From contig CAZNCH010000001.1 in assembly GCA_964571555.1 (NCBI GenBank), forward strand, positions 1,265-65,264: a DNA stretch of 64,000 nucleotides. Reading direction: 5' to 3'. The notes under the pieces were generated by a model, which saw only the letters and a list, made by a program, of their open reading frames with translations, did no database searches and was not told where the DNA came from. The stretch's first letter is position 1. Each line of letters starts with the position of its first letter. Origin of the DNA: an uncultured Lachnospiraceae bacterium (GTDB lineage Bacteria; Bacillota; Clostridia; Lachnospirales; Lachnospiraceae). Shown one piece after another: positions 8,378 through 58,351 of this stretch. The position numbers were made by a program, and so were the translations under genes.

Positions 8378-9619
8378 ATGAAATACCTTATTTTAGGCGC
8401 GGGTCCTGCGGGGCTGGCATTTGCGAATCAGTTGCTGCAAAACGGGGAAGAAGACTTCCTGGTTCTTGAGAAAGAGGCGGATGCCGGCGGGCTGTGCAGA
8501 AGCAGAGAGGTGGACGGACGTCCGCTGGATATCGGCGGCGGACATTTTCTGGACGTTAAGAACCCAAGGGTGCTTGACTTTGTGTTTCCCTTTCTGTCGA
8601 TGGAAGAGTGGGATCGATATGAGCGTGATTCCAGAATTGTTGTAAACGGAAATGTCATTCACAGCCCGATTGAAGCCAATATCTGGCAGATGAAGTTGTC
8701 CGATCAGGTGGAGTATCTGAAAGCGATTGCAATTGCGGGCTGCAATCTGGGCGAAACCATGCCGGAGAACTTCGTCGATTGGATTTACTGGAAACTCGGA
8801 AAAAAGATTGCGGAAGATTATATGATTCCGTATAATCAGAAGATGTTCGGTTCGGATCTGAATATTCTCGGAACCTATTGGCTGAACAAACTGCCGAATG
8901 TTTCCTTTGATGAAACACTGATCAGTTGTCTTGAGAAGAAGGCGTACGGCACCCAACCGGGACACGCGCAGTTCTTCTATCCGAAAGAGTACGGAATCGG
9001 GGAACTGTTCGCACGGATGGCAGCTGCACTGGGCGATCGGATTCGATATAATACGCCGGTGGAGACCCTGGATCTTGAGACGAAAACAGTCAACGGAACC
9101 TATCGGGCAGAAAGAATCGTGACGACCGTTCCGTGGACGGCAATCGAAAAGATCACGGGACTCCCCGTGTATCTTGAGACGGCGGTTCACGCCTTAAAGC
9201 ACAGTTCCGTCGTGATCACCTACCGCCCTGAAATGCTTGAGACGAAAGCGCAATGGATTTATTATCCGGATCTGTCGCTGCCGCATCACCGCATTTTGGT
9301 GCGCCATAATTTCTGTCCCCGCGCAAAGGGCTACTGGACGGAAACGAATCTGACCAGATTCAAGGAAGAACAGGCGGAGGGACAGCCCTATTATATCAAC
9401 GAATACGCCTACCCGCTGAATACGATAGGGAAAGAGGAAAACATGGCGACGCTGCTTGTGTTTGCGGAGAAAAAGGGCGTCATCGGTCTCGGAAGATGGG
9501 GCGAGTGGCAGCATTTTAATTCAGATGTCGTCATTGCCAGAGGAATGGATCTGGCGGACCGGCTTTGTGGGAAAGAACGGGAAGATGAGAATATTGTGGT
9601 CAAAAATCAAAAACGATAA
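8378..9619 (+). CDS. FAD/NAD(P)-binding oxidoreductase (UDP-galactopyranose mutase / amine-oxidase-like fold)
   Basis: Rossmann dinucleotide motif at the N-terminus (LILGAGPAGLAFANQL...LEKEADAGGLCRS). Size and architecture fit flavin mutase/oxidase families. The exact family was not resolved by eye. Confidence 0.6.
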   Translation: MKYLILGAGPAGLAFANQLLQNGEEDFLVLEKEADAGGLCRSREVDGRPLDIGGGHFLDVKNPRVLDFVFPFLSMEEWDRYERDSRIVVNGNVIHSPIEANIWQMKLSDQVEYLKAIAIAGCNLGETMPENFVDWIYWKLGKKIAEDYMIPYNQKMFGSDLNILGTYWLNKLPNVSFDETLISCLEKKAYGTQPGHAQFFYPKEYGIGELFARMAAALGDRIRYNTPVETLDLETKTVNGTYRAERIVTTVPWTAIEKITGLPVYLETAVHALKHSSVVITYRPEMLETKAQWIYYPDLSLPHHRILVRHNFCPRAKGYWTETNLTRFKEEQAEGQPYYINEYAYPLNTIGKEENMATLLVFAEKKGVIGLGRWGEWQHFNSDVVIARGMDLADRLCGKEREDENIVVKNQKR

Positions 9620-11216
9620 ACTGTTCCGCTATCAGGCAGTGACAACGGTGCTGTTTGTTCTGCTGATCACGGCGCTGGCGTGGCAGAGTGACGACGCCTA
9701 TCACGCTTATATCATGGCAAAGAATCTGGTGCTCGGAAACGGCTTCGTCTACAATGTCGGAGAACGGGCAAGCGCATCCTCCTGTCCGCTGTTTACGCTG
9801 ATCATCGCCTTCGGGTACTTTTTCTTTCGGAAGATGTTCCTTGTATCGCTTCTGATCTGCATTTTCTTTTCCACCGCAGCTTATGTGGTGATCGTGAAGA
9901 CTTTCTGCAAGACGGAAAAGCAGGTCCTGGGAACCTTTTTGACGCTTGCGGCGAGTTCCTGCTTCATCAGTTATACCACGAGCGGCTTGGAAAACTGTCT
10001 GCTGTTTTTCCTGGCGGCGCTTTTCCTGAAATACTATTTTGCAACGGAGCGATACCGCGCAGGGGAGTTGCTGATCCTGGCGATCCTGGTGGCGCTGCTT
10101 GCGATGACCAGAATGGACGCCGTCCTGCTTGTTGTCCCGATGGCGCTTTACGCTTACCTTGCAAGAAGAGACAGGGTCTCTTTCGGTAAGGCGGTGCTGC
10201 TTGGTATTGCGGGGCTGTCTCCGTTTTTCCTCTGGGAGTTGTTTTCTCTCTTTTATTATGGTTTCCTCGTTCCCAATACCGCCTTTGTGAAGCTTGGTAC
10301 GGATATCCCGAAAAAGGAATACCTGGCAAGGGGCATCATGTATCTGGGAATTTCCGGCATCTGCGACGTGCTGTTAATCGCAGTTCCGCTCTTTGTGATT
10401 ATCGTCACGATCCTGCTTCAGAAGCGGCGGGAACTGTTTTGCTCGGCAGGTGTTCTGCTGTATCTTGTCTATGTAATCTATATCGGCGGAGATTTCATGC
10501 TGGGAAGACATTTTACCGTAATGTTCCTGATGTCGGTCATTTGCTTCCTGCATTTGCAGAACGAGACCTTCTTCGGACACGCAAAGCGACAGGTGATAGA
10601 ACGCGCAGCCGGTGTGGTTCTTGCGCTCGGTTTGCTTTGCAATCTGACGGGGTCGGTGATTACGAATCAGTTGCTGTTCGCGTACGGGGCGTCTCCGATT
10701 TCTGATGAGCGCGCCGGGTATTTCAAATATACCAGCCTTTATAACAATGTTCGCGCCTATCTTTCGGAAGGGCGTCTGATTCTGCGCGATGCATGGAACG
10801 AGCAGGGAATAGAAGAATATCGCGAGGCGGGTTACGAAAGAGGTATTCTGCGGATGGTTCCGGGCATCTCCATTTATTATAATTCGGACATGTATTTAAA
10901 TGACCAGTACGCGCTCGGTGATCCCTTTCTCTCCAAACTTCCTGCGGTCAGAGAGGACGGCTGGAGAATCGGACACAGTTGGCGGGAAGTGCCGCCGGGA
11001 TATGCCGACAGCGTGTTTGTCAACGAGAATCGGATCGAGGATGCGGATCTTGCCGCCTATTACGACAAGATTCTCCTGATTACAAGAAGCGAGCTCTTCG
11101 ATGGAGAACGTCTTCGTGCTGTGATGGAGATGAATCTGGGGAGATACGATCATCTGCTTGATCACTACCGAAATTCGTTGGATGAGAACTGTAGACTGAT
11201 ACCAAAGGACGAATGA
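9585..11216 (+). CDS. GT-C fold polytopic membrane glycosyltransferase (arabinofuranosyl-/glycosyl-transferase-like)
   Basis: The ATG at 9585 is preferred over the track start at 9456. Residues upstream of 9585 overlap the preceding gene and look non-coding. The protein has many TM helices and an early loop acidic motif (WQSDDAYHAY) typical of GT-C enzymes. Confidence 0.5.
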   Translation: MRILWSKIKNDKLFRYQAVTTVLFVLLITALAWQSDDAYHAYIMAKNLVLGNGFVYNVGERASASSCPLFTLIIAFGYFFFRKMFLVSLLICIFFSTAAYVVIVKTFCKTEKQVLGTFLTLAASSCFISYTTSGLENCLLFFLAALFLKYYFATERYRAGELLILAILVALLAMTRMDAVLLVVPMALYAYLARRDRVSFGKAVLLGIAGLSPFFLWELFSLFYYGFLVPNTAFVKLGTDIPKKEYLARGIMYLGISGICDVLLIAVPLFVIIVTILLQKRRELFCSAGVLLYLVYVIYIGGDFMLGRHFTVMFLMSVICFLHLQNETFFGHAKRQVIERAAGVVLALGLLCNLTGSVITNQLLFAYGASPISDERAGYFKYTSLYNNVRAYLSEGRLILRDAWNEQGIEEYREAGYERGILRMVPGISIYYNSDMYLNDQYALGDPFLSKLPAVREDGWRIGHSWREVPPGYADSVFVNENRIEDADLAAYYDKILLITRSELFDGERLRAVMEMNLGRYDHLLDHYRNSLDENCRLIPKDE

Positions 11217-11222
11217 AAGCGC

Positions 11223-11828
11223 ATGGGAAAGATATTTTGCATACTGGGCAAGAGTTCGACAGGGAAGGACACGGTCTATCGGCGAATCCTGAACGATCCG
11301 GACCTGAATTTAAACAGCGTGGTTTCTTATACAACGCGCCCGATTCGGGATGGCGAGAAGCAGGGAGAGACCTACCATTTTGTTTCGGAGGATGATTTTT
11401 GGCGTCTGAAATCCGAAGGAAAAATCATCGAAGACCGCGCTTACCGAACCGTGCACGGACTCTGGCGGTATTTCACCGTCAACGACCGGAAACTGGATCC
11501 GGAGCATAGGGACTATCTGATGATCGGCGTTTTAAATTCCTATCTGTCGATCAGAGACTTCTTCGGAAAGGATCGTGTTGTGCCGATCTATATAGAAGTA
11601 GATGACGGAGTTCGCCTGCAAAGAGCATTGGATCGCGAGAAGAAACCGGAGAACCGGAAGTTTGCAGAATTGTGCCGCAGATTCCTGGCGGACAGTGAAG
11701 ACTTTGCGGAAGAAAAACTGCTGGCAGCAGGACTGACAACGCGCTTTGCCAATGACGATCTGGATCTTTGCGTGGACCGCATCAAAGCATATATTCAGGC
11801 AAAGCTGTCCGGAAGGGAGGGCCTCTGA
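11223..11828 (+). CDS. guanylate kinase-like nucleoside monophosphate kinase family protein
   Basis: P-loop GKSSTGKDT followed by the Gmk-type TTRPIRDGEKQGETYHFVSEDDF motif. Confidence 0.7.
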   Translation: MGKIFCILGKSSTGKDTVYRRILNDPDLNLNSVVSYTTRPIRDGEKQGETYHFVSEDDFWRLKSEGKIIEDRAYRTVHGLWRYFTVNDRKLDPEHRDYLMIGVLNSYLSIRDFFGKDRVVPIYIEVDDGVRLQRALDREKKPENRKFAELCRRFLADSEDFAEEKLLAAGLTTRFANDDLDLCVDRIKAYIQAKLSGREGL

Positions 11829-45015: not shown

Positions 45016-46667
45016 AAACAAGAAGAATCAGCGGACGGCAGTTCGAACGGATGGTTCGGAACGGACTGGCGAATTTAAGCGAATACGAGACCAAACTGAA
45101 CGCGCTGAATGTTTTTCCCGTGGCGGACGGAGACACCGGAACGAATATGATCGCTACGTTAGCCGGCGGGATTGCTGCAGCCAAAAGCAACGAGCATGCG
45201 GGTCTTTACCTGAAATCATTGACGGACGGAATGCTGCTCGCTGCCAGAGGGAACTCGGGCGTGATCCTGTCACAGCTGTTTCGGGGATATTATCGGGCAC
45301 TCTCCAAATGCCCCATCATCGGGATAGGAGAATTCAGAAACGCATTGATTCACGGATACCGTTCGGGCTATGACGCTGTAGTCAGACCCGTGGAAGGAAC
45401 GATCTTAACGGTTGCACGGGAGGGAATCGAGCATATCCGCGCACAGATCGGAAGGAATACGACGCTGGAAGAATTGCTCTCCATGTATGTCGCTGAAATG
45501 AGAAAGAGTCTCGCGCAGACGCCGGAACTGCTTCCGGAATTGAAAAGCGCAGGCGTCATAGACAGTGGGGCGCTCGGTTACATTGCGGTCGCAGAGGGGA
45601 TGCTGAAATATCTGTACGGAGAACTCGTAGAGATGAAGCAGGAGAATGCGGAGACAATCGGCATGGAAAAGAACGAAAGCGTCGTGGACTATTCGGTCTT
45701 TCACGAAAACAGTCCTTTTGAAGAAGGTTATTGTGTTGAGTTTCTGTTGCAGTTGATGCGTTCTGAGCAATATCTGCAGAACTTTCGATTGCGGAAATAC
45801 ATTGAGGATCTGAATGATTTCGGCGAATCGATCGTGGCGGTGCAGGATGAGAGCCGTGTCAAGGTGCATATCCATACGCTGAAACCAGCCAAGGTGCTTT
45901 CTCTCAGCCAGGATTACGGAGAATTCCTGACCTGTAAGATTGAGAATATGCAGTTGCAGCACAACGAACAGCTGAAGAGGAAAGAGATCAGCAAGCCGAG
46001 ATCGGAATTCGTTATCGTTTCCATGGCGGATACGAATCGAATGAAGCAGATCCTTTTTGATCTCGGCAGCGATTACGTGATCCCCGGCGGTGCCGGAATG
46101 AATGCTTCCGTGCAGATGTTTTTGGACGCGTTTGAGGAAGTGAACGCAGAGACGATCGTTGTGCTTCCCAATGATGCGAACTCGATCTTCTCCGCCAGAC
46201 ACGCGGCGAAGATCTATGATCGGGCGAAGATTGTAATTCTGGAAACGAAGTCCGTTCCGCAAGGCTATTACGCACTGGCGATGGATGTTCCCGACAGCAG
46301 GGATATCAATTTCCGAATTTCACAAATGAAAAAGGGCATGACGGAAACGGAAACACTGTTTGTCAGCAAAGCGTCCAAGCCCTATCGGAGCGATGTTTTC
46401 TCCTGCGAGGAGGGTGCAAGGATCGCCATCGTCGGGGAAGAAGTGGTTGCCGAAGGAGCAGATAACGTGGACGCCTTCCTCAAAGGGCTGTCCTTTGTGG
46501 ACGGGATTGGGGAGAAGGAAGTCTGCGTGATTTTCAGAGGAGATTCGGAAGCCGGATATGAGGAAGCAAGGCTGCAAAATGCGGTCAATGACGCCTATCC
46601 GGATCTGGAAGTGGAATTTATTGACGGCGGCTCCAAACTGTACAGTTGGATGGCTGCCATTGTATAA
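45012..46667 (+). CDS. DAK2/DhaL-domain protein of the YloV/FakA (fatty acid kinase ATP-binding subunit) family
   Basis: The N-terminal DhaL motif LNVFPVADGDTGTNM and the ~550-aa three-domain length match FakA/YloV. ATGA overlap with the MFS gene. Confidence 0.75.
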   Translation: MKTRRISGRQFERMVRNGLANLSEYETKLNALNVFPVADGDTGTNMIATLAGGIAAAKSNEHAGLYLKSLTDGMLLAARGNSGVILSQLFRGYYRALSKCPIIGIGEFRNALIHGYRSGYDAVVRPVEGTILTVAREGIEHIRAQIGRNTTLEELLSMYVAEMRKSLAQTPELLPELKSAGVIDSGALGYIAVAEGMLKYLYGELVEMKQENAETIGMEKNESVVDYSVFHENSPFEEGYCVEFLLQLMRSEQYLQNFRLRKYIEDLNDFGESIVAVQDESRVKVHIHTLKPAKVLSLSQDYGEFLTCKIENMQLQHNEQLKRKEISKPRSEFVIVSMADTNRMKQILFDLGSDYVIPGGAGMNASVQMFLDAFEEVNAETIVVLPNDANSIFSARHAAKIYDRAKIVILETKSVPQGYYALAMDVPDSRDINFRISQMKKGMTETETLFVSKASKPYRSDVFSCEEGARIAIVGEEVVAEGADNVDAFLKGLSFVDGIGEKEVCVIFRGDSEAGYEEARLQNAVNDAYPDLEVEFIDGGSKLYSWMAAIV

Positions 46668-46678
46668 GAGGTGGAAGT

Positions 46679-47623
46679 TTGAACATTGCTTTTATCATTT
46701 CGGCGATCATTTTGCTGCTCGCGGTTTTCTTCGTGATCGCCATGTCGCTGGTTCTCTACAACATCATTCTGGTCAGAACATCGGAGCTGAAATGGGGACG
46801 GGAATGCAGCATCACGGAGGATGCGGAATATCAGCGCATGTATGATATCGGGCTTGCCTGGGAACAGCATCACCGCGATTGCAAGTCGGAGGTTTTCGTA
46901 CAAAGCGACGGATTCAGACTTGCAGGGGAATATTTTGACTTTGGCTCTGACCGCGCGGTGATCATTGTGGCGGGACGAACGGAGTCCTGTCTCTATTCCT
47001 ACTTTTTCGCGGAGCCTTACCGCGTTGCCGGCTACAATGTTTTGGTCATTGATAATCGCGCACATGGCTTGTCGGAGGGGAAGCGCGTCTCGCTGGGCTT
47101 CAAGGAATACAGGGATCTTCTGAAATGGGGCGAACTGCTGCATGAGGAAAAGGGGAACGCACATCTTATGCTGCACGGAATCTGTATCGGGTCTTCGGTT
47201 GCGCTGTTCACGCTCACCGATCCGTCGTGTCCCGCCTACTGGGACGGAATGGTTGCAGAGGGAATGTACACCACGTTTGCGGAGTCCTTCAAGAATCACA
47301 TGATTCAGGATCACAGACCGCTGTTTCCGATCTTCTATGTGACAATGCTGTGGGTGCTTTTGCTTTCCGGCGCCAACGTAATGACGGACGGTCCTCTGAA
47401 GCGGCTGCCGCTGCTGAAGAAGCCGATTCTCTTTCTGCACAGCAGAGAGGATGTATTTTCTCTGCCGGAGAAGGCGGAACTGTTATATGAAAAGTGCAAG
47501 GCGCGAAAAGAAATGGTCTGGTTTGAAACCGGCGCGCATTCCAGACTCCGCATCCGTCATTTAGAGGCGTATGATGCGGCGGTTCGTGCATTTGCGAAAA
47601 GACTGAGGAATGAGAATATTTAA
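46679..47623 (+). CDS. membrane-anchored alpha/beta hydrolase (paralog 3 of 3) with Cys in the nucleophile elbow
   Basis: TTG start after GAGGTGGA and an N-terminal TM helix. The elbow reads G-I-C-I-G (Cys codon TGT at 47183-47185) where the paralogs have Ser. Asp (HSREDVF) and His (GAHSR) are retained. Confidence 0.7.
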   Translation: MNIAFIISAIILLLAVFFVIAMSLVLYNIILVRTSELKWGRECSITEDAEYQRMYDIGLAWEQHHRDCKSEVFVQSDGFRLAGEYFDFGSDRAVIIVAGRTESCLYSYFFAEPYRVAGYNVLVIDNRAHGLSEGKRVSLGFKEYRDLLKWGELLHEEKGNAHLMLHGICIGSSVALFTLTDPSCPAYWDGMVAEGMYTTFAESFKNHMIQDHRPLFPIFYVTMLWVLLLSGANVMTDGPLKRLPLLKKPILFLHSREDVFSLPEKAELLYEKCKARKEMVWFETGAHSRLRIRHLEAYDAAVRAFAKRLRNENI

Positions 47624-48746
47624 TCGAAAATCAAAGAACAGAAAGAGAATGCCCGGCGCTAACGTGATTGCAGCAGCATGCGGAAGCGCCCTCTTGTTGT
47701 GCGGCTGTAATCAGACAGCGCCTGCTGCCGAAGCCGTGATTCCGCACAAGACCTATCAGAAACTGGAATATGTCACAACCGTGGTACAGAAGGGCGATAT
47801 GAAACCGGTGCTGACCTTGAAACTGAAGGCGCAGCTCGGCACGCAAATCCGCTATACGGTGAATTTGGCGGACGCCGAGGTGGATGAAGTCTATGTGAGC
47901 ACGGGAGACAAGGTAGTCAAGGGGCAGCTTCTGGTCTCCTTCAAGTCCGAGAAAACGAAAAAGGAAATTGAGAACTACAGGGCGGAGCTCGAAGAAAAAC
48001 AGTTGATGCTCGATCATTATACCAGAATGTCTCTGTTTGATTTACAGGAGCGGGAATATTACGAAAAAGAGCGGAAGGAGTATCCGCTTTATCAGCAGCA
48101 GGAAGATGAGATCAACAAAGAACGGGATCAGGAGAGCAAACGCCGGAAGGCGGCGGATTACAGTTTCACTGTACAACAGTTGCAATCGGATGTGGATCTG
48201 GCGGCGCTCTATCTGGAAGAAGCAACTGCCAGACTTGAGAATTGTCAGATTCGGGCAGAAGAGGACGGCGTCATCTCCTTTATGAGTCAGGGCTTGCTCA
48301 GCGGCTATGTACAGCCCGGCGAAACCCTGATGAACGAAAACTGCGGAGAGAATACCTACGCCGCCTATACCAGGGACGACTATGATTTTCGGATCGAAGA
48401 CAGTTTTACGGCGGAGGACGAGAACGCTTCCTACAAAATGACGGTGACGCAGACGAGCGGAGAAGACGACGGGACGAGACGAATCGTGTTCGTACCGGAT
48501 GCGACGCTGCTCAATCCGCCGGAGGGGGAAGCGCTTACCATGACCATCGAGAAGACCCGTTTGTTCGACGTGGTCTATGTGGAAAAGGGAGCAATCGCAA
48601 CCAAGGGAGAGCAATCTTTCGTCTATCTGGTATCGGAGAACGGCTTTCTTGACGCAAGAGAAGTGGAAACGGGGGAAGTCGTAGAGAATATGGTTGTAAT
48701 TAAAAAGGGTTTGAACGGGAACGAAAAGGTGGCAGTGATCAAATGA
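47610..48746 (+). CDS. HlyD/MacA-family membrane fusion (periplasmic adaptor-like) lipoprotein
   Basis: Lipobox LLCGC, a lipoyl-like hairpin (VYVSTGDKVVKGQLLVSF), a coiled-coil stretch, and beta-barrel/membrane-proximal segments. Confidence 0.75.
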   Translation: MRIFNRKSKNRKRMPGANVIAAACGSALLLCGCNQTAPAAEAVIPHKTYQKLEYVTTVVQKGDMKPVLTLKLKAQLGTQIRYTVNLADAEVDEVYVSTGDKVVKGQLLVSFKSEKTKKEIENYRAELEEKQLMLDHYTRMSLFDLQEREYYEKERKEYPLYQQQEDEINKERDQESKRRKAADYSFTVQQLQSDVDLAALYLEEATARLENCQIRAEEDGVISFMSQGLLSGYVQPGETLMNENCGENTYAAYTRDDYDFRIEDSFTAEDENASYKMTVTQTSGEDDGTRRIVFVPDATLLNPPEGEALTMTIEKTRLFDVVYVEKGAIATKGEQSFVYLVSENGFLDAREVETGEVVENMVVIKKGLNGNEKVAVIK

Positions 48747-51004
48747 GAAAACAGACATTTGGAAAGTGCGTGTGGGGGGTCATGGCGGCGTGCCTGCTGC
48801 TTGGCGGGTGTAAGGATGCAAGAGAGGTCCCGGCGCTGATCGAACCGGTTGCCGCCAACCAGTCGTTTCGACCGGTGGAGAGAAGAAATATCGGGAAAAT
48901 CCATGTTTCGATTGGAAATGTAGTGGCGGCGGAGGATTGCTATTACTATAAAAAGGTCACAACGATCAAGGAAATCCGTGTCAATGTCGGACAGCGGGTC
49001 GAAGAAGGCGACATTCTGGCGACGGCGGATCTGGAAGCGCTGGAGAATGAACTGGAGGATATTTCCGATCAAAGGGCATATTTCAGTGCGCTTCATGACG
49101 CCAACCAGCCCTTGTATCCGCTCCGGCTCGATCTGATCGACGTCGATAAACGCAGTTACGTCAACAGAGAGGACGGAAAGAGCGCTGCGGAGTGCGATAA
49201 TAAGACCAATCTGGAAAAAGAGAACTATCTCTACGACGAGAAACTCTTTGAGTACCAGATGAGACAACTTGCAAAGCGAGCGGAAGAAGTAAGGGAACAG
49301 ATTGCGGACGCGACGCTTAGGGCAACCAGGGCAGGCGTGGTCACCTACATTAAAAACACCGGCAAAAACAATGTGGCAAGGATAAACGAAGTCGTCGTGA
49401 TCGTGGCGGATGAAAACGACGTTTACATCGAAACGCCGGATCAGACCACCGAGGTGAACAAGTATAAGAAATACGAAGTGAAGTATGCGCTGATCGACGG
49501 GAAGGAGATTCCGGTTACGGAAGTGGAATATACGGACGATGAAACGATCTATGCAAGGGCGCAGCGCAGTTATCCCTGTATCCGTTACAAGACGCAGGAG
49601 CCGACTGATCTGAAGCCCGGAAATTCCGTCGTGCTCTGTTTCTTTCAGAAGGATCGGACCCGGGCGCTGTGTGTCGGTTCGGATTCCCTGAACTCGGATG
49701 ACGTCGGGAACTATGTCTATGTGAAAGGAAACGGGGATGAACTTGAAAAGCGCTACGTGTTAACCGGTGCTTCTGACGATTATTTTACGGAGATCCTTGA
49801 CGGGTTGGAGGAAGGAGAAGCGGTCTTCTATGTGCAGGAAATCGCGTCCCCCGTGAACTACAAAGAATATCGGGTCGAGAGTCGGGAGTATACGCAGACC
49901 TATATGAGCCTGAAACTGCGAGAGGGGCAGACCTTGAATCAGGCATATTTCGCCCCCTGCTTGGGAACCGTGAAGGAGATCCGTGTGGATCAGGGGAAGT
50001 GGGTAAAAAAGGGAGATGTGCTCATGGTCATTGATACCGGAGGCGGCGCTTCCGCGATTCAGGAGATTGTCAATGAGAAGAACCGGATCAAGGCGGATTA
50101 TGATAAGACGGTCAACAGTCTGGACGGGCAGCTCTATGATACAACCGCGCAAAAGGAGATTACAACGATAGAGGCAGGTATGTTCCACATGTGCGAACCG
50201 GATTATTTATTTGCCATGGAACGGGCGCAGATCCAGCAGAAGATGGCGGTTTACCAGAAGGAAGTGGCGAAGGCGGAGTATGAAGGGAGAATCAGACAGT
50301 GCAACAGGCGCCTGGAGCGCGTAAAAAAGGATAATGACGGCGCCGGTCTGGTCAGTGTAGTAGCGGAAGAGGACGGTATGATTTCGCGGATTCATGTCAA
50401 GGAAGGCGCTCTCATTAAGGAAAACGGCGAGAATCATCTCCTGTTGTCCTGCGCCGCTTACACACCGGATATCGTGGCGGTTTCGGTAAACACCATTCTC
50501 TCGCTTTCGTTGAACGGAAGAGTGAACGGCGTCTGTCCGATCGGAGCAAAGGTGCGAATCGTAGATTCGGAGGATGATTCGATCGCTTTCTCCGGCGTCT
50601 GCGTCAGCAATGCGTGGGATACAAAAAGTTATGCCTTTACCGAAGAAGACGGACGTGCGCGCGCGGTGACAATCAGCGATGAAGACAATAAAGAGAATTA
50701 CTTCTATGTCAAAATGGATGATCCCGAGTTTCTGGAGAAGCTCAACGTCAACAAAGCCGCAGCTTATCTGGACACGATGCAGGGGGAGAACATGATTGCG
50801 ATTCCTGCGCGGCTGCTCTACAAAGAGGAGAGCAAGACCGATAAAAAGGAAAAGTATTTCGTCTGGAAACTGCAGGACGGAAATCCCGTCAAGCAGTATG
50901 TGATCAGAGGTACGGAGTACGGTCTCGGAAATGAAACGGAAACAGTGATCCTGCAAGGAATCTCGAACGGAGATATTCTGGCGGATGAAGGAAATCATCA
51001 GTAG
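48743..51004 (+). CDS. tandemly duplicated HlyD/MacA-family membrane fusion lipoprotein (two complete adaptor modules in one chain)
   Basis: Lipobox LLLGGC. There are two lipoyl-type motifs (IKEIRVNVGQRVEEGDILATAD and VKEIRVDQGKWVKKGDVLMVID). Each is followed by a coiled coil, a second half-lipoyl (RAGVVTYI / DGMISRIHVKEG) and beta-rich domains. Confidence 0.7.
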   Translation: MRKQTFGKCVWGVMAACLLLGGCKDAREVPALIEPVAANQSFRPVERRNIGKIHVSIGNVVAAEDCYYYKKVTTIKEIRVNVGQRVEEGDILATADLEALENELEDISDQRAYFSALHDANQPLYPLRLDLIDVDKRSYVNREDGKSAAECDNKTNLEKENYLYDEKLFEYQMRQLAKRAEEVREQIADATLRATRAGVVTYIKNTGKNNVARINEVVVIVADENDVYIETPDQTTEVNKYKKYEVKYALIDGKEIPVTEVEYTDDETIYARAQRSYPCIRYKTQEPTDLKPGNSVVLCFFQKDRTRALCVGSDSLNSDDVGNYVYVKGNGDELEKRYVLTGASDDYFTEILDGLEEGEAVFYVQEIASPVNYKEYRVESREYTQTYMSLKLREGQTLNQAYFAPCLGTVKEIRVDQGKWVKKGDVLMVIDTGGGASAIQEIVNEKNRIKADYDKTVNSLDGQLYDTTAQKEITTIEAGMFHMCEPDYLFAMERAQIQQKMAVYQKEVAKAEYEGRIRQCNRRLERVKKDNDGAGLVSVVAEEDGMISRIHVKEGALIKENGENHLLLSCAAYTPDIVAVSVNTILSLSLNGRVNGVCPIGAKVRIVDSEDDSIAFSGVCVSNAWDTKSYAFTEEDGRARAVTISDEDNKENYFYVKMDDPEFLEKLNVNKAAAYLDTMQGENMIAIPARLLYKEESKTDKKEKYFVWKLQDGNPVKQYVIRGTEYGLGNETETVILQGISNGDILADEGNHQ

Positions 51005-51012
51005 GTGGAGAA

Positions 51013-53865
51013 ATGCTGCAACTCATCAAGAATAAGATCAAAAACAAAAAATTGCTGAATTTAAGCCTTCTGACAGGCGTGATTCTCCTTGCGGGTCTGC
51101 TCTGCGTCTACCCGATCTTTCGAGAGGGGAGTCTGAACCGGCTCCTCATGACGATGTTTACGGACGCCATTGAGGAAAAAGAGCAATACCCTGCGGTCAT
51201 CATGCGGAACGGACTACTGGCGGAAGAGGATTTCACCTCTGTTGACTCCATTCTTGCCGAAATGGACGCCTATGAGAAAAAGTGGGGTGAGAAAATTACT
51301 GCACCCGTCGTGGAACGACAACGCCTGATTCGCATTCCCGGCGGAAACGCAGAGACCAGTTTCGGTGAAAAATCACGGGTCGTAACGCTGGGCTATGTGC
51401 CAGAGTTATATGAACATGCAGACGTCGTGTACGGCGTTGCCGCGGATCGTGCGGAACAATCCGATAACGAATATGTGTTGGATGCCTTGCGTTTGGGCGC
51501 TTATCCCTGCGTGATCTCGCAGACGACGATGGATAAATACGGGCTGGTGGTCGGCGAACAACTCTCGTTTAAATTCAGACTTTACGGGGATCCGACGCCC
51601 TATGATTTCGTGATAACAGGCATCGTTGAAGAAAAGGAAAATGACGGTCGCTACTGGTACAGCCGGTTACGCGAGAACGATAAGATGCTCTTTGTGAACA
51701 AAGATGATTTTAACGAACTCGTGATTCTGTCGGAGAGTGCGGAGATTCGCTATGAAGCGGAAGTGATGTATGACTTTTCAAAGATCAACTGTAAGAATGC
51801 ACCCGAATATCTGGATGCATTAATCGCTTTCAAAGCGGAAGATGAGCACCTGTACCCCAATTTCGATCATACGCTGAGCCGTTATCTCGAGCAGGAAAAG
51901 GCAATCAGTGTGATCCTGCTCACCTTTGAACTGCCGATAGTGGCACTTTTACTGCTTTTCCTTTATATGATTTCGGATCGGATCCTTGAAATGGAGACAA
52001 CGGAAATCTCCATGTTGAAGAGCCGCGGCGTCAGCCGAGCGAAAATCATCGGTCTCTATGTCGGTCAGTCTTCTCTGATCGCTTTGATCGGCTGTATCAT
52101 CGGCTTGCCGGTGGGCTTCTTTCTGTGCAGGCTGGCAGCAGGCACAAACGCCTTTCTTTCGTTCTCCATGAAAGACGTCGGCACTTATTTGCCGACTCCC
52201 ATGATGCTGCCGTTTGCAGCGCTTGCTTTTGTCCTGTCCGTGCTTTTCATGACGCTTCCCGTGATCGCTCTTTCGCGGCTTACGATCACAGACAGGAAGG
52301 GAAAAAGAATCTCCCTGCATCACATCCCGTTTTGGGAGAAGGCGTTCCTCGATGTGCTGCTGTTGGGCGTATCAGGCTATCTTCTCTACAACTATTACAA
52401 ACAGAGCGAAGAAATGTCGGCGCGCATCATCGGCGGCGGCAGTATCGATCCCGTGATTTTTCTCGATTCAACGCTGTTTATCCTATCCTGCGGTCTGCTC
52501 TTTATCCGCCTTACGGGATATCTGGTAAGGCTGATTTATCGGCTCGGCAGAAAACACTGGAAACCGGCGACCTTTGTCGCTTTCATGCAGATCATCCGCG
52601 GGGTCGGAAAGCAGGGCTTCATCTCCGTTTTTCTTGTGATGACGATTGCCATGGGGGTCTTCAATGCGAATCTCGCAAGAACCGTCAATGAGAATGCGGA
52701 ACGAAGAACAAGTTACAATCTCGGCACGGATTTAAGACTGCAGGAGAAGTGGAAGTTAACGACGATCCGCGTGAACCCTACCGACCCGACGCCGCTCTGG
52801 AACTATTCCGAGCCCGATTTCGAACGGTACAGATTCTTAGAGGAGTTCGGCGCAGAAGAGATGACGCGGGTCATCTGTGACGAAAATACGGATCTTGTGA
52901 TCGATAAGAAGGTGGAGAAGGGGAATACCCTGATGGCGATTCACACAAAGGAATTCGGAGAGACGGCAACACTGCCGGAAGGCGTGAATGACGTGCATTG
53001 GTTTCATTACCTGAACCAGCTGGCAAAGCTTCCGAACGGGGTGCTTATTTCAAGCAATCTTGCGCAGAAATACAGTCTCAAAGAAGGGGATAAAATCAAA
53101 TATGAAAGATACAGCCCTGTGAATGAGAAAGAGCCGTATCAGACCGTGGAGGCGAAGATCTGCGGCATTGTCGATGCGTTCCCGGGCTATGAGAGCGCAG
53201 CCTACACCGCAAAAGAGGACGGAACGGTAGAGCTTCGCGAGAACTATCTTGTAGTTGCCAATTATGCGACTGTGGTGAATGATTTCTCCATCACCCCATA
53301 CCAGATCTGGATTCGTCTGAGGAATTACGCGGATTCCGATCAGATGGAGCGCGCAATCGAAGATGCGGGAATCACGCTGACATCCTTTACGTCTCTGGAG
53401 AGAGAGATCCAGGATCAGCGGGATTCCGCGATGATCCAGATTACCAACGGGATGTTCTCCGTCGGGTTTATTATTTCGCTGTTGATCTGCGCGGTCGGTT
53501 TTCTGATCTATTGGATCCTGACCATTCGGGAGAGAGAACTGCTCTACGGAATCTATCGGGCAATGGGGATGAGTATGCGTGAGATCCAGAAAATGCTGGT
53601 AACGGAGCAGATTTTCAGTTCGCTTCTGGCAGCAGTGTCCGGCTTCGGCGTCGGCGCAGTGACGACGCTGCTGTTCACAAAGTTGATTTCCATCGTATAT
53701 CTGCCGCGGAAACATAATCTTCCGATTGAAATTGCGATGAAGCCGGAGGACAGCATCAAAATGGTGGTGATCATCGTGATCGCGTTCGCCGTTTGCTTCT
53801 ATATCATGCGCAAAACAATCCGAAACATGAACATTACACAGGCCTTGAAGATGGGAGAGGATTAA
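51013..53865 (+). CDS. ABC transporter permease with two MacB/FtsX-type modules
   Basis: 950 aa. The pattern TM - large extracytoplasmic domain - 3 TM occurs twice, and the C-terminal FtsX-type helices are recognisable. Confidence 0.8.
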   Translation: MLQLIKNKIKNKKLLNLSLLTGVILLAGLLCVYPIFREGSLNRLLMTMFTDAIEEKEQYPAVIMRNGLLAEEDFTSVDSILAEMDAYEKKWGEKITAPVVERQRLIRIPGGNAETSFGEKSRVVTLGYVPELYEHADVVYGVAADRAEQSDNEYVLDALRLGAYPCVISQTTMDKYGLVVGEQLSFKFRLYGDPTPYDFVITGIVEEKENDGRYWYSRLRENDKMLFVNKDDFNELVILSESAEIRYEAEVMYDFSKINCKNAPEYLDALIAFKAEDEHLYPNFDHTLSRYLEQEKAISVILLTFELPIVALLLLFLYMISDRILEMETTEISMLKSRGVSRAKIIGLYVGQSSLIALIGCIIGLPVGFFLCRLAAGTNAFLSFSMKDVGTYLPTPMMLPFAALAFVLSVLFMTLPVIALSRLTITDRKGKRISLHHIPFWEKAFLDVLLLGVSGYLLYNYYKQSEEMSARIIGGGSIDPVIFLDSTLFILSCGLLFIRLTGYLVRLIYRLGRKHWKPATFVAFMQIIRGVGKQGFISVFLVMTIAMGVFNANLARTVNENAERRTSYNLGTDLRLQEKWKLTTIRVNPTDPTPLWNYSEPDFERYRFLEEFGAEEMTRVICDENTDLVIDKKVEKGNTLMAIHTKEFGETATLPEGVNDVHWFHYLNQLAKLPNGVLISSNLAQKYSLKEGDKIKYERYSPVNEKEPYQTVEAKICGIVDAFPGYESAAYTAKEDGTVELRENYLVVANYATVVNDFSITPYQIWIRLRNYADSDQMERAIEDAGITLTSFTSLEREIQDQRDSAMIQITNGMFSVGFIISLLICAVGFLIYWILTIRERELLYGIYRAMGMSMREIQKMLVTEQIFSSLLAAVSGFGVGAVTTLLFTKLISIVYLPRKHNLPIEIAMKPEDSIKMVVIIVIAFAVCFYIMRKTIRNMNITQALKMGED

Positions 53866-53866
53866 G

Positions 53867-54697
53867 ATGGAATATATGATAGAAACCAGACAGATTCATA
53901 AAAGTTTTCCTCTCGGCAACAAAGAAACGCTGGAAGTCCTGAAAGGGATCGATCTCAAAATCGAAAAGGGAAAACTGACGATTCTGAAAGGAAGATCCGG
54001 CTCGGGGAAAACAACGCTGTTAAATATTCTAAGCCTGCTGGATGCACCGACAAAAGGTGAACTTCTGATCGACGGCGAGGAAATGAAAGAGAAAAGCGAG
54101 GTCGAAAAAGAGAAGATCCGAAGATATCATATCGGCTTCGTCTTCCAGTCGGTTGCGCTGCTGCCGATCCTTTCCGCTTATGAAAATGTGGAGTTCGGCA
54201 TGAGGCTTGCCGCATATGAAGGAAACATGGACGAAAGGATTCGAAATGTCTTAAGGATCGTCGGACTGCAGAAGCGCATGGGTCACATGCCCGCGCAGAT
54301 GTCCGGCGGTGAACAGCAGAGAGTCGCAATTGCGAGGGCGGTCGCCCACAGTCCCAAGATCATCTTCGCAGACGAGCCGACAGGGGCGCTGGATACGGAT
54401 TCCGGTCTTGCGATCATGAAACTGTTTCGGGAGCTGATTGAGAAAGAGGGCATCACGATTGTCATGACAACGCACGACCCGAATCTGATGCAGCTTGGAG
54501 ACGTCGTCTATGAAATGGAAGACGGGGAACTGACGCTGATTGCCGAAGAAAACGAAGCGGAACCGATTGAGGAGACTCTTTCGGAGACAGCAACAGAAGA
54601 AAAAACAGAAAAAAGGGAAACAGTGAACAAAGAAACAGACGCAACAGAAAAGGAAACGGACAATGGAGCAGAAGAAGGAAGAGATTCTGGTTTGTGA
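53867..54697 (+). CDS. ABC transporter ATP-binding protein 1 (MacB/LolD type) with an acidic low-complexity C-terminal tail
   Basis: Walker A GRSGSGKTT, signature MSGGEQQRVA, Walker B IFADEP. The ~50-aa tail is rich in E, T and K. Confidence 0.9.
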   Translation: MEYMIETRQIHKSFPLGNKETLEVLKGIDLKIEKGKLTILKGRSGSGKTTLLNILSLLDAPTKGELLIDGEEMKEKSEVEKEKIRRYHIGFVFQSVALLPILSAYENVEFGMRLAAYEGNMDERIRNVLRIVGLQKRMGHMPAQMSGGEQQRVAIARAVAHSPKIIFADEPTGALDTDSGLAIMKLFRELIEKEGITIVMTTHDPNLMQLGDVVYEMEDGELTLIAEENEAEPIEETLSETATEEKTEKRETVNKETDATEKETDNGAEEGRDSGL

Positions 54698-55568
54698 CGG
54701 ACTGGTGAAAATATTCAAGACAGACGAAGTGGAAGTGATGGCGCTGCAAGGGCTGGATCTTACGATTAAACGAGGGGAACTCGTCGCCATTATCGGGAAA
54801 AGCGGCAGCGGGAAATCAACGCTTTTGAATATGATCGGCGGTCTGGATCGACCGACGGCGGGAAGAATCTATGCGGACGGAAATGATCTCTTTGCAATGA
54901 CGGAGCAGCAGTTGGTGGAATATCGGCGGAGCACGGTCGGTTTCGTCTGGCAGAACAGCGGGCAGAATCTGTTTTCTTATCTGACCGCCGTACAGAATGT
55001 GGAAGCGCCGTTATATTTTGAGCGGATGGGCGACAAGGAGAGAAGAGAACGCGCCATGGAACTTCTGAAGCGAACCGGCGTCGAGCACAAGGCAGACGCC
55101 TACCCGACCCAGATGTCCGGCGGAGAACAGCAGAGAGTTGCGATTGCGGTGGCGCTGGCGAACGATCCGAAGATTCTGCTGGCAGACGAACCGACCGGTT
55201 CTGTGGATTCGAAGACATCCAATCGGATTCAGGATTTGTTCCGGAAGTTAAATGAGGAAACCGGACTGACGATCATTATCGTGACGCACGATATCAGTCT
55301 TGCAAACAAGGTGTCCCGTGTGATTATGGTCTCCGACGGTAAGATCAGTACGGAGAAAATCATGAAGGAAGCGTACCGGAAGAAGTTGGATGAATTGTCA
55401 ACCGAGACGTTAAAGGAAATAGAGTCGCATGAAGAATATTCGGTGCTTGACAAGGCAAGGCGCGTCCAACTCAGTGAAGACGCATTGCAGGAAGCGGGGA
55501 TTGACAGTCACATGGTAAAAGTGGAAGTTGTCGACGGAAAAATCGTGATCTCAAAGCAGGACGCGTGA
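54663..55568 (+). CDS. ABC transporter ATP-binding protein 2 (MacB/LolD type) with a ~75-aa C-terminal extension
   Basis: Walker A GKSGSGKST, signature MSGGEQQRVA, Walker B LLADEP. It overlaps the preceding gene by 35 nt and the extension ends ...RRVQLSEDALQEAGIDSHMVKVEVVDGKIVISKQDA. Confidence 0.9.
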   Translation: MEQKKEEILVCDGLVKIFKTDEVEVMALQGLDLTIKRGELVAIIGKSGSGKSTLLNMIGGLDRPTAGRIYADGNDLFAMTEQQLVEYRRSTVGFVWQNSGQNLFSYLTAVQNVEAPLYFERMGDKERRERAMELLKRTGVEHKADAYPTQMSGGEQQRVAIAVALANDPKILLADEPTGSVDSKTSNRIQDLFRKLNEETGLTIIIVTHDISLANKVSRVIMVSDGKISTEKIMKEAYRKKLDELSTETLKEIESHEEYSVLDKARRVQLSEDALQEAGIDSHMVKVEVVDGKIVISKQDA

Positions 55569-55578
55569 GATCTCAGGT

Positions 55579-55605
55579 TAAGGATTCCGGCGGATCTGCC
55601 GAAAT
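55579..55605 (+). promoter_or_regulatory. sigma-28 (SigD/FliA)-type promoter: TAAG-N15-GCCGAAAT
   Basis: It matches the TAAA-N15-GCCGATAA consensus at 3/4 and 7/8 positions with exact spacing. It lies 38 nt upstream of the 55643 ATG. Confidence 0.6.
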
Positions 55606-55642
55606 ATAGTGCGTAAGACATTCGGATTGAAGAGGGTGCACT

Positions 55643-58351
55643 ATGAAAGTGGATTTGCAGAAGATCAATCAGAATGTTGACATGGAAAAAACCGCATATC
55701 ATGTACCGGAGCGGGTTTTGGAAGCAGGGATCGCGACTGCCGCTTCGGGATATTCCTTAGACATTACAGGCAATGTTACGGATAACATGGCATATAGGGA
55801 AGAGGGTCTGAGATCGTTAGAAGATTTCCGCCTTGCCGCCGGTCGTTTAGACGTAACGCAGCAGCGAAATTACATGACCGTAATGTCTAATTCCATGTCA
55901 ACAGAAGATTTTGCCAAATTGCAGAAAGAGGGCTATCGTCCCGGCGCGGTTGCCGTGGAGGATCTGGTCACCAATCTGGATAAGATCAAGGCGAAGGTGG
56001 CGGAAGCCGGTACTGTAATTGCAGGGTTCAACGACGATCTTTCCATGGAAGAAATGGAAAGGATTACGGGAAGCAGGGCGGAAGCGCTCAAGATCTCTGC
56101 GGCGCTGATCGAAAACGATCTCCCGGTGACCGAAGAAAACCTTCGAAACATCAAGGAAGCCTTTGAGGAGAGCGAACAGATTACAGAGGTCACCGACAGC
56201 ATGCTGCGTTTCCTCGTCAAAAATCCGATGGAACCTACCGTCGGAAACCTGTATAAAGCACAGTTCAGTAGCGGAACGGAAGCGCTCAGACCTTCCGGGG
56301 GCTATTATCCGGAAGAGACGAACGGCTATTATGCGAAGAAAGCGGAGCAGATCGAATGGAGCCGGATCGGCGATTCCGTCAATCGAATCATTGAAGACGC
56401 AGGACTTTCCGGTGTGGCGTCTGCACAGGATGAGGCAAGATGGACGATTGCACAGGGGTTGCCGCTAACCAGGGACAGTTTGCGGCAGGTTCATACCTAT
56501 CGGGAGATCCGCTTTCCTTTAGAAAAAGCGATGCTGCTTCCTAAATTTACGGCTGCGATTGCGGTCGGCAGGAAACCGCAGCAGGCGAATCTGACGACAG
56601 AACGGCAGCAGCCGCCGCACTTCGCATCAAAGCGGATGCTGGAAGAAACGCGGCTGATGATGAGCATTGAAGCAAACAGGTCGCTTGCAAGACAGGGTCT
56701 TTGGATCGATACGCAGGAACTTGCGCGTGCGGTTGCGCAATTGGAAGAAGCGGAGAAAGAACTGTTCGGTCGCGCCATTGACGTCATACAGGAGATCGCG
56801 GAACAGCCCGCGGAATCCATTCAGGCGGCGGTTTTTGATACACGCAGTTTTACGCCGGTACAGTTACATGAAATCGGACAGTCGCTGAAGCAATCTTACG
56901 ATGCGGCGATGAAGCGGTATGAAACGGTCTGGACAGCGCCGAGAGCCGATCTTGGAGATTCCATTCAGAAGGCGTTTCGAAATGTGGATGAGATTCTTGC
57001 GGATCTGAATCGGATTCCGGATGAAGTGAACCGCAAGACGGTACGGATCTTAGGATATACGGAAACAGAGATAACGGAAGAAAATTTCGAACGCGTCAGA
57101 GAGGCAACAAAAGCGGTGCTCGAGGTGATCGAGCGGATGACGCCGGAGAAGATGCTCGCAATGATCCGCGACGGATTCAATCCGCTGAATGAGAGCATGA
57201 CGGATGTGGCAGACTATCTGAAACGGAAAACGGACAGCGAGCGGGCGGAAAGTTACAGCGAATATATTTGGAAACTGGAGAAAAACGGAGAGGTGACTCC
57301 GTCCGAGAAGGAGGCGTACATCGGAATCTGCCGCCTGATTCGTCAGATTGAGAAAAACGACGGCAGACCGATCGGGGATGTATTAAACACGGAAGAACAG
57401 CTGACGTTGCAGAATCTTCTCAACGCGGTGCGATCCAGAACAGCGGCGGGCATGGACGTAGGGATCGACGATGCATTCGGAACGCTGGAAACCTTACAGG
57501 AAAAAGGAACATCCATTACGGAGCAGATCCTGCAGGCCTTCGATCAAGTCATACGGACGGCGGACACAGAGGAAGCCGAACAGTTGCTGGCAAAGGAAGC
57601 GAAACAGCAATCCGCCGAGGCGATGAACGTTTCGGATGAGGCGCTGGGCGCGCTTCTGGATACAGGACTTCCGGTAAATGCCGATCACCTGCTTGCGGCG
57701 CAGTACCTGATGCATCAGAGGGGCGCGACGTTTGCGGCTTTCGGAAAGTTATTAAAAAGGACAACGGCGGAAGAGACACGGGAGGCGAAAGAAAAGACAG
57801 AAGGCTTCGTTGATCTGCTCGGTACGGAAGACGATCCTGCGGAAGCATATCGCAGTATGACGGTGGCGGCGGAAAGCGTGATCAACGAAGAGACGTTTCG
57901 GGAAGTTGATCCCGACCGACTGCGTGCGTTAAGGCTGCTGCATAAGCAGTTGTATGTGGCAGGGGCGATGGCACGAAGAGAGACTTACGAAGTACCGATG
58001 GAAATCGAGGGTTCTCTGACCGGCATCCATCTTCGCATTCTGCGCGGTACGGAGACGGCGGAAGCGGCAATCAGTTTCGAAACGGAAGGATACGGGAGCG
58101 TCAGAGCGCGATTTTCACTGCATCAGGAGAAAGTAAACGGTTATGTGACAGGTGATTCGGAAGAGGGAATCCGAAAGCTTTCGGAGCAAAAAGCAGCCTT
58201 TACGGAACTGGCGGGATACGATACGGAAGCCATCCGCTACTTCGTTACAAAGGATCTCAAACCGGACCGCGCGACACAGACGGATCAGGGAAACAAAGCA
58301 AGCGTCAGAGCATTATACGGCGTCGTCAGAGCGTTTCTGAAGAGCCTATAG
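55643..58351 (+). CDS. large acidic flagellar-locus protein with a FliK-like C-terminal domain (possibly DUF6240 family)
   Basis: 902 aa, helical and acidic, with recurring (G)LPVT/LPLT/LPVN...L segments. The C-terminal beta-rich block (MEIEGSLTGIHLRILRG...ISFETEGYGSVRARFSL...VNGYVTGD) resembles the FliK hook-length-control C-domain. It is co-oriented 16 nt upstream of flagellin. Confidence 0.4.
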   Translation: MKVDLQKINQNVDMEKTAYHVPERVLEAGIATAASGYSLDITGNVTDNMAYREEGLRSLEDFRLAAGRLDVTQQRNYMTVMSNSMSTEDFAKLQKEGYRPGAVAVEDLVTNLDKIKAKVAEAGTVIAGFNDDLSMEEMERITGSRAEALKISAALIENDLPVTEENLRNIKEAFEESEQITEVTDSMLRFLVKNPMEPTVGNLYKAQFSSGTEALRPSGGYYPEETNGYYAKKAEQIEWSRIGDSVNRIIEDAGLSGVASAQDEARWTIAQGLPLTRDSLRQVHTYREIRFPLEKAMLLPKFTAAIAVGRKPQQANLTTERQQPPHFASKRMLEETRLMMSIEANRSLARQGLWIDTQELARAVAQLEEAEKELFGRAIDVIQEIAEQPAESIQAAVFDTRSFTPVQLHEIGQSLKQSYDAAMKRYETVWTAPRADLGDSIQKAFRNVDEILADLNRIPDEVNRKTVRILGYTETEITEENFERVREATKAVLEVIERMTPEKMLAMIRDGFNPLNESMTDVADYLKRKTDSERAESYSEYIWKLEKNGEVTPSEKEAYIGICRLIRQIEKNDGRPIGDVLNTEEQLTLQNLLNAVRSRTAAGMDVGIDDAFGTLETLQEKGTSITEQILQAFDQVIRTADTEEAEQLLAKEAKQQSAEAMNVSDEALGALLDTGLPVNADHLLAAQYLMHQRGATFAAFGKLLKRTTAEETREAKEKTEGFVDLLGTEDDPAEAYRSMTVAAESVINEETFREVDPDRLRALRLLHKQLYVAGAMARRETYEVPMEIEGSLTGIHLRILRGTETAEAAISFETEGYGSVRARFSLHQEKVNGYVTGDSEEGIRKLSEQKAAFTELAGYDTEAIRYFVTKDLKPDRATQTDQGNKASVRALYGVVRAFLKSL

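Follow-up and report, generated by a model that had tools for sequence, protein, structure and literature searches.

The number and order of adaptor proteins around ATP-binding cassette (ABC) and resistance-nodulation-division (RND) pumps, and the role of these adaptors where there is no outer membrane, are long-standing questions. In MacAB-TolC of Escherichia coli (PDB 5NIK, 9QGY) the permease MacB, a homodimer with a fused nucleotide-binding domain (NBD), works with MacA, a single adaptor protein that is anchored by a transmembrane (TM) segment, is used six times and docks to TolC. Pumps of this general kind are also known from monoderm hosts: Spr0693-0694-0695 of Streptococcus pneumoniae and YknWXYZ of Bacillus act in resistance to antimicrobial peptides or toxins, and their adaptor hexamer has been proposed to span a periplasm-like zone of the inner wall (PMC5768738, PMC5985334, PMC8277102). 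Fused or paired adaptors are no new idea either. DSY0927 of Desulfitobacterium hafniense, a predicted ABC-transporter adaptor, is a natural fusion of two different membrane-fusion proteins (MFPs), and together with TriABC and engineered AcrA-AcrA fusions it has served as an argument for adaptors working as dimers (PMC4338810, PMC4446572). Whereas the earlier approach was to engineer fusions (AcrA-AcrA, TriAxB), we here describe a natural and widespread version, found in 64,000 nucleotides (nt) of DNA (hereafter the window) from an uncultured Lachnospiraceae bacterium (GenBank assembly GCA_964571555.1, contig CAZNCH010000001.1, positions 1,265 to 65,264 of the forward strand). It is a cassette of five genes that encode a single adaptor lipoprotein (MFP-A), a double adaptor lipoprotein (MFP-BC), a single-chain permease and two ABC ATPases. 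We consider its general architecture, and its membership of a MacAB-like class, to be very probable.

The cassette shares with MacAB-TolC a type VII permease of the FtsX fold with large extracytoplasmic domains and an adaptor of four domains (lipoyl, hairpin, barrel and membrane-proximal, MP), and MacA is the best structural match for all three of its adaptor modules, which we call A, B and C. It differs in that the permease is fused and asymmetric, the NBDs are two separate and different proteins, and the adaptors are three different lipoprotein modules, two of them fused, with no outer-membrane channel. The Spr0693-0694-0695 and YknWXYZ pumps resemble it in their monoderm host, their hairpin adaptor and their separate NBD and FtsX-type permease, but they have a single adaptor gene, a 4-TM permease that forms homodimers and a single NBD, against three adaptor modules, two permease halves and two NBDs in the window. 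DSY0927, which we compare by description only, is likewise a covalent fusion of two MFPs beside an ABC transporter in a Firmicute; its N-terminal half is described as having no coiled coil, whereas both halves of the window protein carry long hairpins and a third adaptor is always present. The DSY0927 fusion was reportedly noted by Zgurskaya et al. in 2009, from sequence only, and is said never to have been characterised. In TriABC-OpmH of Pseudomonas aeruginosa two non-identical adaptors are both required and, as TriAxB (PDB 6VEJ), a fused pair is functional. However, its transporter is of the RND type with three-fold symmetry, its host is a diderm and it has an outer-membrane channel, and TriAxB is a man-made fusion with two adaptor types, not three. 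E. coli YbbAP(-TesA) has, like the window, a single-chain permease in which two MacB-type units are joined by two helices and carry two extracytoplasmic domains, and a separately encoded NBD (PMC12646458); unlike the window, it uses one NBD, YbbA, twice, and its partner is the hydrolase TesA, not adaptors. Full-text searches of the literature turned up no description of a conserved 1+2 adaptor set on a permease of YbbP topology with two different ATPases.

An earlier note on this DNA had proposed three adaptor modules encoded as 1+2, and this is borne out by hidden Markov model (HMM) matches, hhalign, AlphaFold2 (AF2) models and Foldseek. MFP-A has 378 aa (47610-48746, + strand) and MFP-BC has 753 aa (48743-51004, + strand). 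Both carry the lipoprotein signal peptides that the note had read in them, ending in ...LLLCGC in MFP-A and ...LLLGGC in MFP-BC (signal peptide and LLGGC lipobox at 48743-48811, + strand). The lipobox cysteine does not vary among the homologues aligned, being invariant as C33 of MFP-A in 14 orthologues and as C23 of MFP-BC in 25 homologues. Both are predicted lipoproteins with the N-terminal anchor of the adaptor superfamily. The lipoyl motifs quoted earlier for the 753-aa protein are also present, IKEIRVNVGQRVEEGD at residues 75-90 and VKEIRVDQGKWVKKGD at residues 410-425.

Modules A, B and C are all matched by Pfam Biotin_lipoyl_2 and HlyD_D23 and by NCBIfam RND_mfp and type_I_hlyD. MFP-A matches RND_mfp at E 2e-15, and the C-terminal positions of this model are matched at residues 185-375 of module A and 164-361 of module B. 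In module C, Biotin_lipoyl_2 and HlyD_D23 lie at 408-561, and the second-half matches including type_I_hlyD span 404-561. Profiles of MacA structures in the PDB match both halves of MFP-BC, as does RND_mfp. When the MFP-BC family profile is compared with the PDB, MacA structures score best (E ~1e-11); a MacA 4dk0 profile match covers residues 398-696 (module C), the MP domain in the first half is matched by a MacA/MexA chimera, and the engineered TriAxB structure (6vej_P) is among the sequence matches.

The AF2 model of MFP-BC, built from the family alignment, has a predicted local distance difference test score (pLDDT) of 84.2 and a predicted template modelling score (pTM) of 0.75, and it shows one order of elements twice over: strands, a lipoyl half, two helices of ~45 residues, the other lipoyl half, a beta-barrel and an MP domain. 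Module B (residues ~40-372, 48860-49858, + strand; delimited by the RND_mfp match, AF2 secondary structure and linker conservation) has its lipoyl halves at 69-96 and 189-215, a hairpin at 97-188 (nt 49031-49306; helices 97-141 and 145-188), a beta-barrel at 216-319 and an MP domain made of residues 40-68 and 320-365. Module C (residues 373-753, 49859-51004, + strand; delimited by Pfam, the 4dk0 profile, AF2 and hhalign) has its lipoyl halves at 404-434 and 530-560, a hairpin at 435-529 (nt 50045-50329; helices 435-481 and 486-529), a beta-barrel at ~561-689 and an MP domain at ~690-750. The model of MFP-A (14 orthologues, pLDDT 79.8) has the same adaptor order of elements, with its alpha-hairpin at residues ~114-210 (nt 47949-48239). 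Foldseek places MacA of the MacAB-TolC cryo-electron microscopy (cryo-EM) structures first for the MFP-BC model (E 4e-17 and 1e-15) and MacA chain 5nik_D first for the MFP-A model (E 8e-16), and the full-length matches of both models to MacA have a TMt of 0.50-0.58. As predicted and modelled, each module has the lipoyl domain split by a hairpin, the barrel and the MP domain that mark the HlyD/MacA/AcrA superfamily; MFP-A is a full adaptor, and MFP-BC is two complete adaptor modules joined head to tail in one chain. The second half of MFP-BC folds as an adaptor in the AF2 model and matches MacA 4dk0, and an unrelated domain, an outcome on which the idea of the earlier note would have failed, or a decaying one is excluded by its being a full MFP under purifying selection.

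The two halves of MFP-BC are related to each other, and the internal repeat is significant on formal self-alignment. BLASTP of the N-terminal half against the C-terminal one in the 753-aa protein gives E 8e-7, and hhalign of the two halves of the 25-sequence family alignment gives a probability of 96.3% (E 1.8e-9); under a permissive setting this alignment extends to 287 columns, nearly the whole module (B 13-325 against C 17-377). The comparison of B with C draws on secondary structure, profile alignments and whole-model Foldseek. Profile-profile alignment finds all module pairs homologous along their full length, A with B at 99.2% (E 3e-19), A with C at 98.2% (E 3e-14) and B with C at 96.3% (E 2e-9). 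In a beta-only profile comparison B-C is again the weakest pair (68%, E 5e-5), with A-B at 98% and A-C at 96%. B and C are hence the least alike of the three pairs, which argues for a fusion of two diverged adaptors and rules out a recent tandem duplication as the origin of MFP-BC. The term 'internally duplicated', which the earlier note had used, holds in that the chain has two modules and fails in that these are two old paralogues joined together; judged from the profiles, modules A, B and C are anciently diverged paralogues.

The linker between B and C is short, constant in length and conserved in 14 of 15 loci (..GLEEGE.V.Y.QE...P..Y.EY.V.., with P370..Y373.EY376 at the end of module B in the window), so B and C must have their MP domains next to each other. 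In a comparison of 13 diverse loci, conservation is highest in the MP and lipoyl domains (38-50% mean pairwise identity), a pattern that points to contact with the permease and between modules. The hairpins are least conserved (26-34%), and their lipoyl-to-lipoyl spans in A/B/C change from 105/101/111 residues in the window's clade to 70-75/101/117-121 elsewhere, 70/129/91 in Roseburia and 62/76/50 in the distant locus L022. Such variable and poorly conserved hairpins would fit the lack of a fixed docking partner at the tip. As an example, the tip of the module-B hairpin in Roseburia proteins (P0036, P0042, P0072, P0103 and others) holds a variable low-complexity insert of 8-44 residues with AENNIQ-like repeats, read at columns ~158-185 of alignment A1, and the module-C hairpin of the same proteins is ~30 residues shorter than that of the window.

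Fused double adaptors beside double-FtsX permeases, for which the earlier note had suggested a survey, turn out to be widespread. A word-indexed search with the double adaptor returned 139 full-length relatives of 700-770 aa, the named ones from Lachnospiraceae, Roseburia and Blautia, and an exhaustive HMM search of 1.84 billion representatives returned 386 clusters (50% identity) at E<=1e-30, with nearly all of the best 150 clusters full-length (700-860 aa). The survey of loci was run with a narrower alignment, A3, and is therefore biased to close relatives; all 17 of the 17 GTDB species loci recovered are Lachnospiraceae metagenome-assembled genomes from rumen or gut. All loci with enough flanking sequence have the gene order A, BC, permease, NBD1, NBD2, including those of Roseburia and of Blautia, the latter with two extra genes between A and BC, and in most relatives the A and BC genes overlap or sit a few bases apart. 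The 1+2 layout recurs in distant permease subfamilies (325+628, 343+802, 341+823, 383+739 and 368+688 aa), whose permeases have 30-45% identity to that of the window and in whose long adaptors each half again matches adaptor models; the last four of these size pairs also go with the same order of all five genes, and ~298 assembly blocks list one of the permeases. An unfused 1+1+1 relative was sought through permease searches and four locus contexts, and all were 1+2. The 1+2 layout is common in Lachnospiraceae, where it is the rule, and fused or paired adaptors such as DSY0927 and TriAB are in the literature, so the earlier remark that covalently duplicated adaptors are unusual is only partly right. 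Databases label these adaptors as 'biotin/lipoyl-binding protein' or 'hypothetical' only, and Coprococcus-labelled records are among the carriers of the cassette.

Lachnospiraceae are a monoderm family, and neither the window operon nor any of 12 annotated loci contains a TolC-like gene. The outer-membrane factor that completes a tripartite pump is absent from the window operon and from the annotated related loci, in agreement with the apparent monoderm context of the earlier note. What the channel reaches in a monoderm, a point that the note had raised for this locus, is a known open question for YknX and Spr0693 and is not specific to the cassette.

The permease (950 aa, 51013-53865, + strand) contains two FtsX units, in agreement with the double-FtsX context of MacB/FtsX type that had been read from the sequence before: Pfam FtsX (3e-23) and MacB_PCD (3e-9) each match two stretches. 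Hydropathy gives nine clear TM segments and one weak one, and the resulting 10-TM arrangement of 4+2+4, with two linking TM helices and two large extracytoplasmic domains (~38-295 and 558-812), agrees with the description of YbbP (PMC5985334). The halves of the permease align with an hhalign probability of 88.7% over 374 columns at ~15% identity. In PDB searches the family profile matches the TM regions of LolF, LolC and YtrF, and the hits of the permease are weak matches to FtsX regions alone (PsdB, LolF, LolC and YtrF, with PsdB matching the last FtsX unit); PDB sequence and profile searches detected no similarity to YbbP structures. From these features we assign the permease to the MacB, or type VII ABC, class, as a predicted FtsX 4-TM unit with a large extracytoplasmic domain, and within it to the YbbP-type fused form, with two MacB-type units in one chain and the NBD separate.

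Three narrower assignments do not hold. There is no basis for calling the permease a YbbP orthologue, as the likeness is in topology only and the sequence matches are weak. It is not MacB proper, in which the NBD is fused to a homodimerising 4-TM permease, given that the NBDs here are encoded by two separate genes and the permease is fused. Nor is the cassette a Bce-type (BceAB-RS) module, which has a 10-TM permease with a single extracellular domain, one type of NBD and no adaptor, as against two extracytoplasmic domains, a pair of NBDs and three adaptor modules here; the kinases that neighbour it in relatives have 475-482 aa and a HAMP domain, in contrast to the intramembrane-sensing kinase of BceS type.

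ATPase 1 (276 aa, 53867-54697, + strand) is an NBD of MacB/LolD/FtsE type (Pfam ABC_tran 2.5e-34) and is ~41% identical to ATPase 2 (301 aa, 54663-55568, + strand; ABC_tran 1.4e-35), with cross-matches between the two at ~40-43%. Both have canonical Walker A, Q-loop, signature, Walker B-Glu and H-loop motifs, and with these intact both ATP sites should be active. Several peculiarities lie at the ends of the two proteins. ATPase 2 has a conserved C-terminal tail of ~70 aa (..EEYSVLDKARRVQL....VKVEVVDGKIVIS..; window 55359-55565), which has no Pfam match in the window protein and is also found in the distant L022 cassette (8956-9840). ATPase 1 ends in an acidic, E/T/K-rich low-complexity tail (window ~54540-54694). 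The second ATPase is longer in L026 (362 aa, 10575-11663), where the NBD begins only near residue 91, and in L027 (395 aa, 10476-11663).

Our tentative reading of the whole, to which we would give somewhat less than an even chance, is that the five genes of the cassette encode a conserved ABC machine of type VII (MacB superfamily) in monoderm Lachnospiraceae, with an A2(BC)2 adaptor ring. Two different ATPases would power a single-chain, strongly asymmetric permease of YbbP topology, and modules A, B and C would build one heteromeric ring on the permease ectodomains. This ring would consist of six modules, from two A and two BC chains in the order A-B-C-A-B-C, with the order of neighbours and their ratio fixed by the covalent link between B and C and by the translational coupling of A to BC at 1:1. 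From what is known of the family, ATP binding and hydrolysis in the NBD heterodimer would move the permease stalk and ectodomains (mechanotransmission), and the adaptors would be seated on these ectodomains by way of the MP and barrel domains. The molecules carried would be amphipathic (antimicrobial peptides, bile or other lipophilic toxins), taken from the outer leaflet or the wall-proximal zone and expelled through a helical tube of ~6.5-7 nm (~45 residues per helix) into or through the inner wall zone, with no outer-membrane partner involved.

The stoichiometry in this proposal is argued by analogy. MacA, YknX and Spr0693 adaptors are hexamers (PMC8277102), and for this reason we rate A2(BC)2 as the most likely form, though as a possible rather than a probable one. 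The translational coupling of their genes suggests equal amounts of A and BC, and the height of the Spr0693 channel fits a periplasm-like zone (PMC5985334). Several observations weigh against the A2(BC)2 ring and its proposed role. The hairpin lengths of A, B and C vary independently between clades, and with spans this unequal a regular 12-helix tube with equal staves is not conserved. With permease halves that are only ~15% identical, each module type in A2(BC)2 would have to fit two unlike surfaces. Finally, no two-component system adjoins the window's cassette, which follows a lipid-salvage operon.

The first two of these points would suit a fully asymmetric 1:1:1:1:1 machine, with one A and one BC and each module at its own permease site, which we nevertheless hold to be unlikely. 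Its adaptors would form a three-hairpin bundle or an open arc, and instead of being a conduit they would mainly serve to couple or activate and to offer a platform for release. All other parts of the cassette are desymmetrised, with two different NBDs and permease halves of 15% identity, the three modules are each under separate purifying selection, and the independent drift in hairpin length would be resisted by a regular closed barrel; a 1:1 ratio of single copies also fits the translational coupling of A with BC. However, all solved adaptor assemblies, including those of YknX and Spr0693, are hexameric (PMC8277102), three modules are too few to enclose a MacA-like lumen, and such an assembly has no known precedent.

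Less likely again is a trimer of fused dimers, in which three BC chains would form a B-C-B-C-B-C hexamer and MFP-A would act separately as an accessory, perhaps as an alternative adaptor or as a factor for assembly or wall binding. The functional unit is considered to be the adaptor dimer, and fused dimers are active when three of them assemble (PMC4338810, PMC4446572), for which TriA/TriB, the engineered AcrA-AcrA and TriAxB serve as models, 6vej being among the matches of our profile, and in most clades the hairpins of B and C are nearer to each other in length (101 against 117-121) than to that of A (70-75). Yet A is strictly co-conserved and usually translationally coupled with BC, conservation of its MP domain equals that in B and C, and it is the module most similar to both of them; in a three-fold ring, an extra equimolar adaptor would have no obvious reason.

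What such a machine would carry is suggested by the surroundings of related cassettes. Pairs of an OmpR-type response regulator and a HAMP/HisKA kinase adjoin the cassette in Roseburia L001 (1960-4043), Blautia L005 (2968-5075), L024 (495-2641 and 4602-5827) and L025 (3668-5753), L024 also having LiaF-like and LytTR genes. By analogy with other Firmicute MacB-type modules, this suggests an inducible role in envelope stress or detoxification, and our choice of substrate class for the proposed A2(BC)2 pump is a guess from these neighbouring two-component systems. A lipid or hydrophobic-molecule extractor, tied to the upstream lipid-salvage operon and partnered by its membrane-anchored alpha/beta hydrolase as in YbbAP-TesA, is very unlikely: the permease has YbbP topology (PMC5985334), YbbAP passes membrane-extracted lipids to the hydrolase TesA (PMC12646458) and the start of MFP-A overlaps the 3' end of the hydrolase gene (46646-47623) by 14 nt, but the linkage to a hydrolase or lipid operon is absent from all related loci examined, which sets our rating, YbbAP has no adaptors, and no solved type VII protein is more than remotely similar to the permease. 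In L029 a SGNH/GDSL hydrolase is encoded two genes upstream, but among xylanase genes.

In the window the five genes lie tightly packed on the + strand (47610-55568), with junctions in gene order of -4, +8, +1 and -35 nt. The start of MFP-BC overlaps the stop of MFP-A by 4 nt (ATGA), and the start of the ATPase 2 gene overlaps the ATPase 1 gene by 35 nt. A scan of 46000-56000 for promoters and terminators found sites no more numerous than in shuffled sequence. 3' of the cassette lies a gene for a DUF6240 protein (902 aa, Pfam E 2e-101, 55643-58351), with counterparts of ~58% identity after the cassette in the closest relatives (L007 14753-17449, L008 10394-13093, L021 15624-18314 and L025 from 15474), so that in these the synteny reaches beyond the pump. 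Two further genes occur at related loci. A DUF6034 lipoprotein of ~460-485 aa (Pfam E 4.5e-23 and 3e-11) is encoded before MFP-A or between MFP-A and MFP-BC in Roseburia L001 (5554-7008) and Blautia L005 (6596-7987), perhaps as an additional extracytoplasmic partner; the window lacks it. A protein of ~500-530 aa with no Pfam match is encoded right after the second ATPase in L026 (11818-13416), L027 (11814-13415) and L025 (13831-15330), and may be a sixth component of some cassettes.

At its broadest, the cassette could be a fully desymmetrised MacAB-type machine in which every position, from the two NBDs and the two permease halves to the three adaptor modules, is a dedicated and non-interchangeable part, and in which the B-C fusion and the coupled A hard-wire the adaptor order, either as an A-B-C-A-B-C heterohexamer or as a non-hexameric assembly of three modules. 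We regard this as doubtful. If true, it would be the first natural adaptor ring with a defined subunit order, and the adaptor positions that activate the ATPase, seal the ring and touch the cell wall in a monoderm could then be mapped directly. With three distinguishable adaptor modules, two of them tied, an asymmetric permease and two distinguishable ATPases, every position should be identifiable in a cryo-EM map, and a natural system of heteromeric and fused adaptors would open their order and stoichiometry to direct tests. Abundant Lachnospiraceae of the gut and rumen commonly carry the cassette, which may bear on their tolerance of antimicrobial peptides, of host or microbial origin, and of bile.

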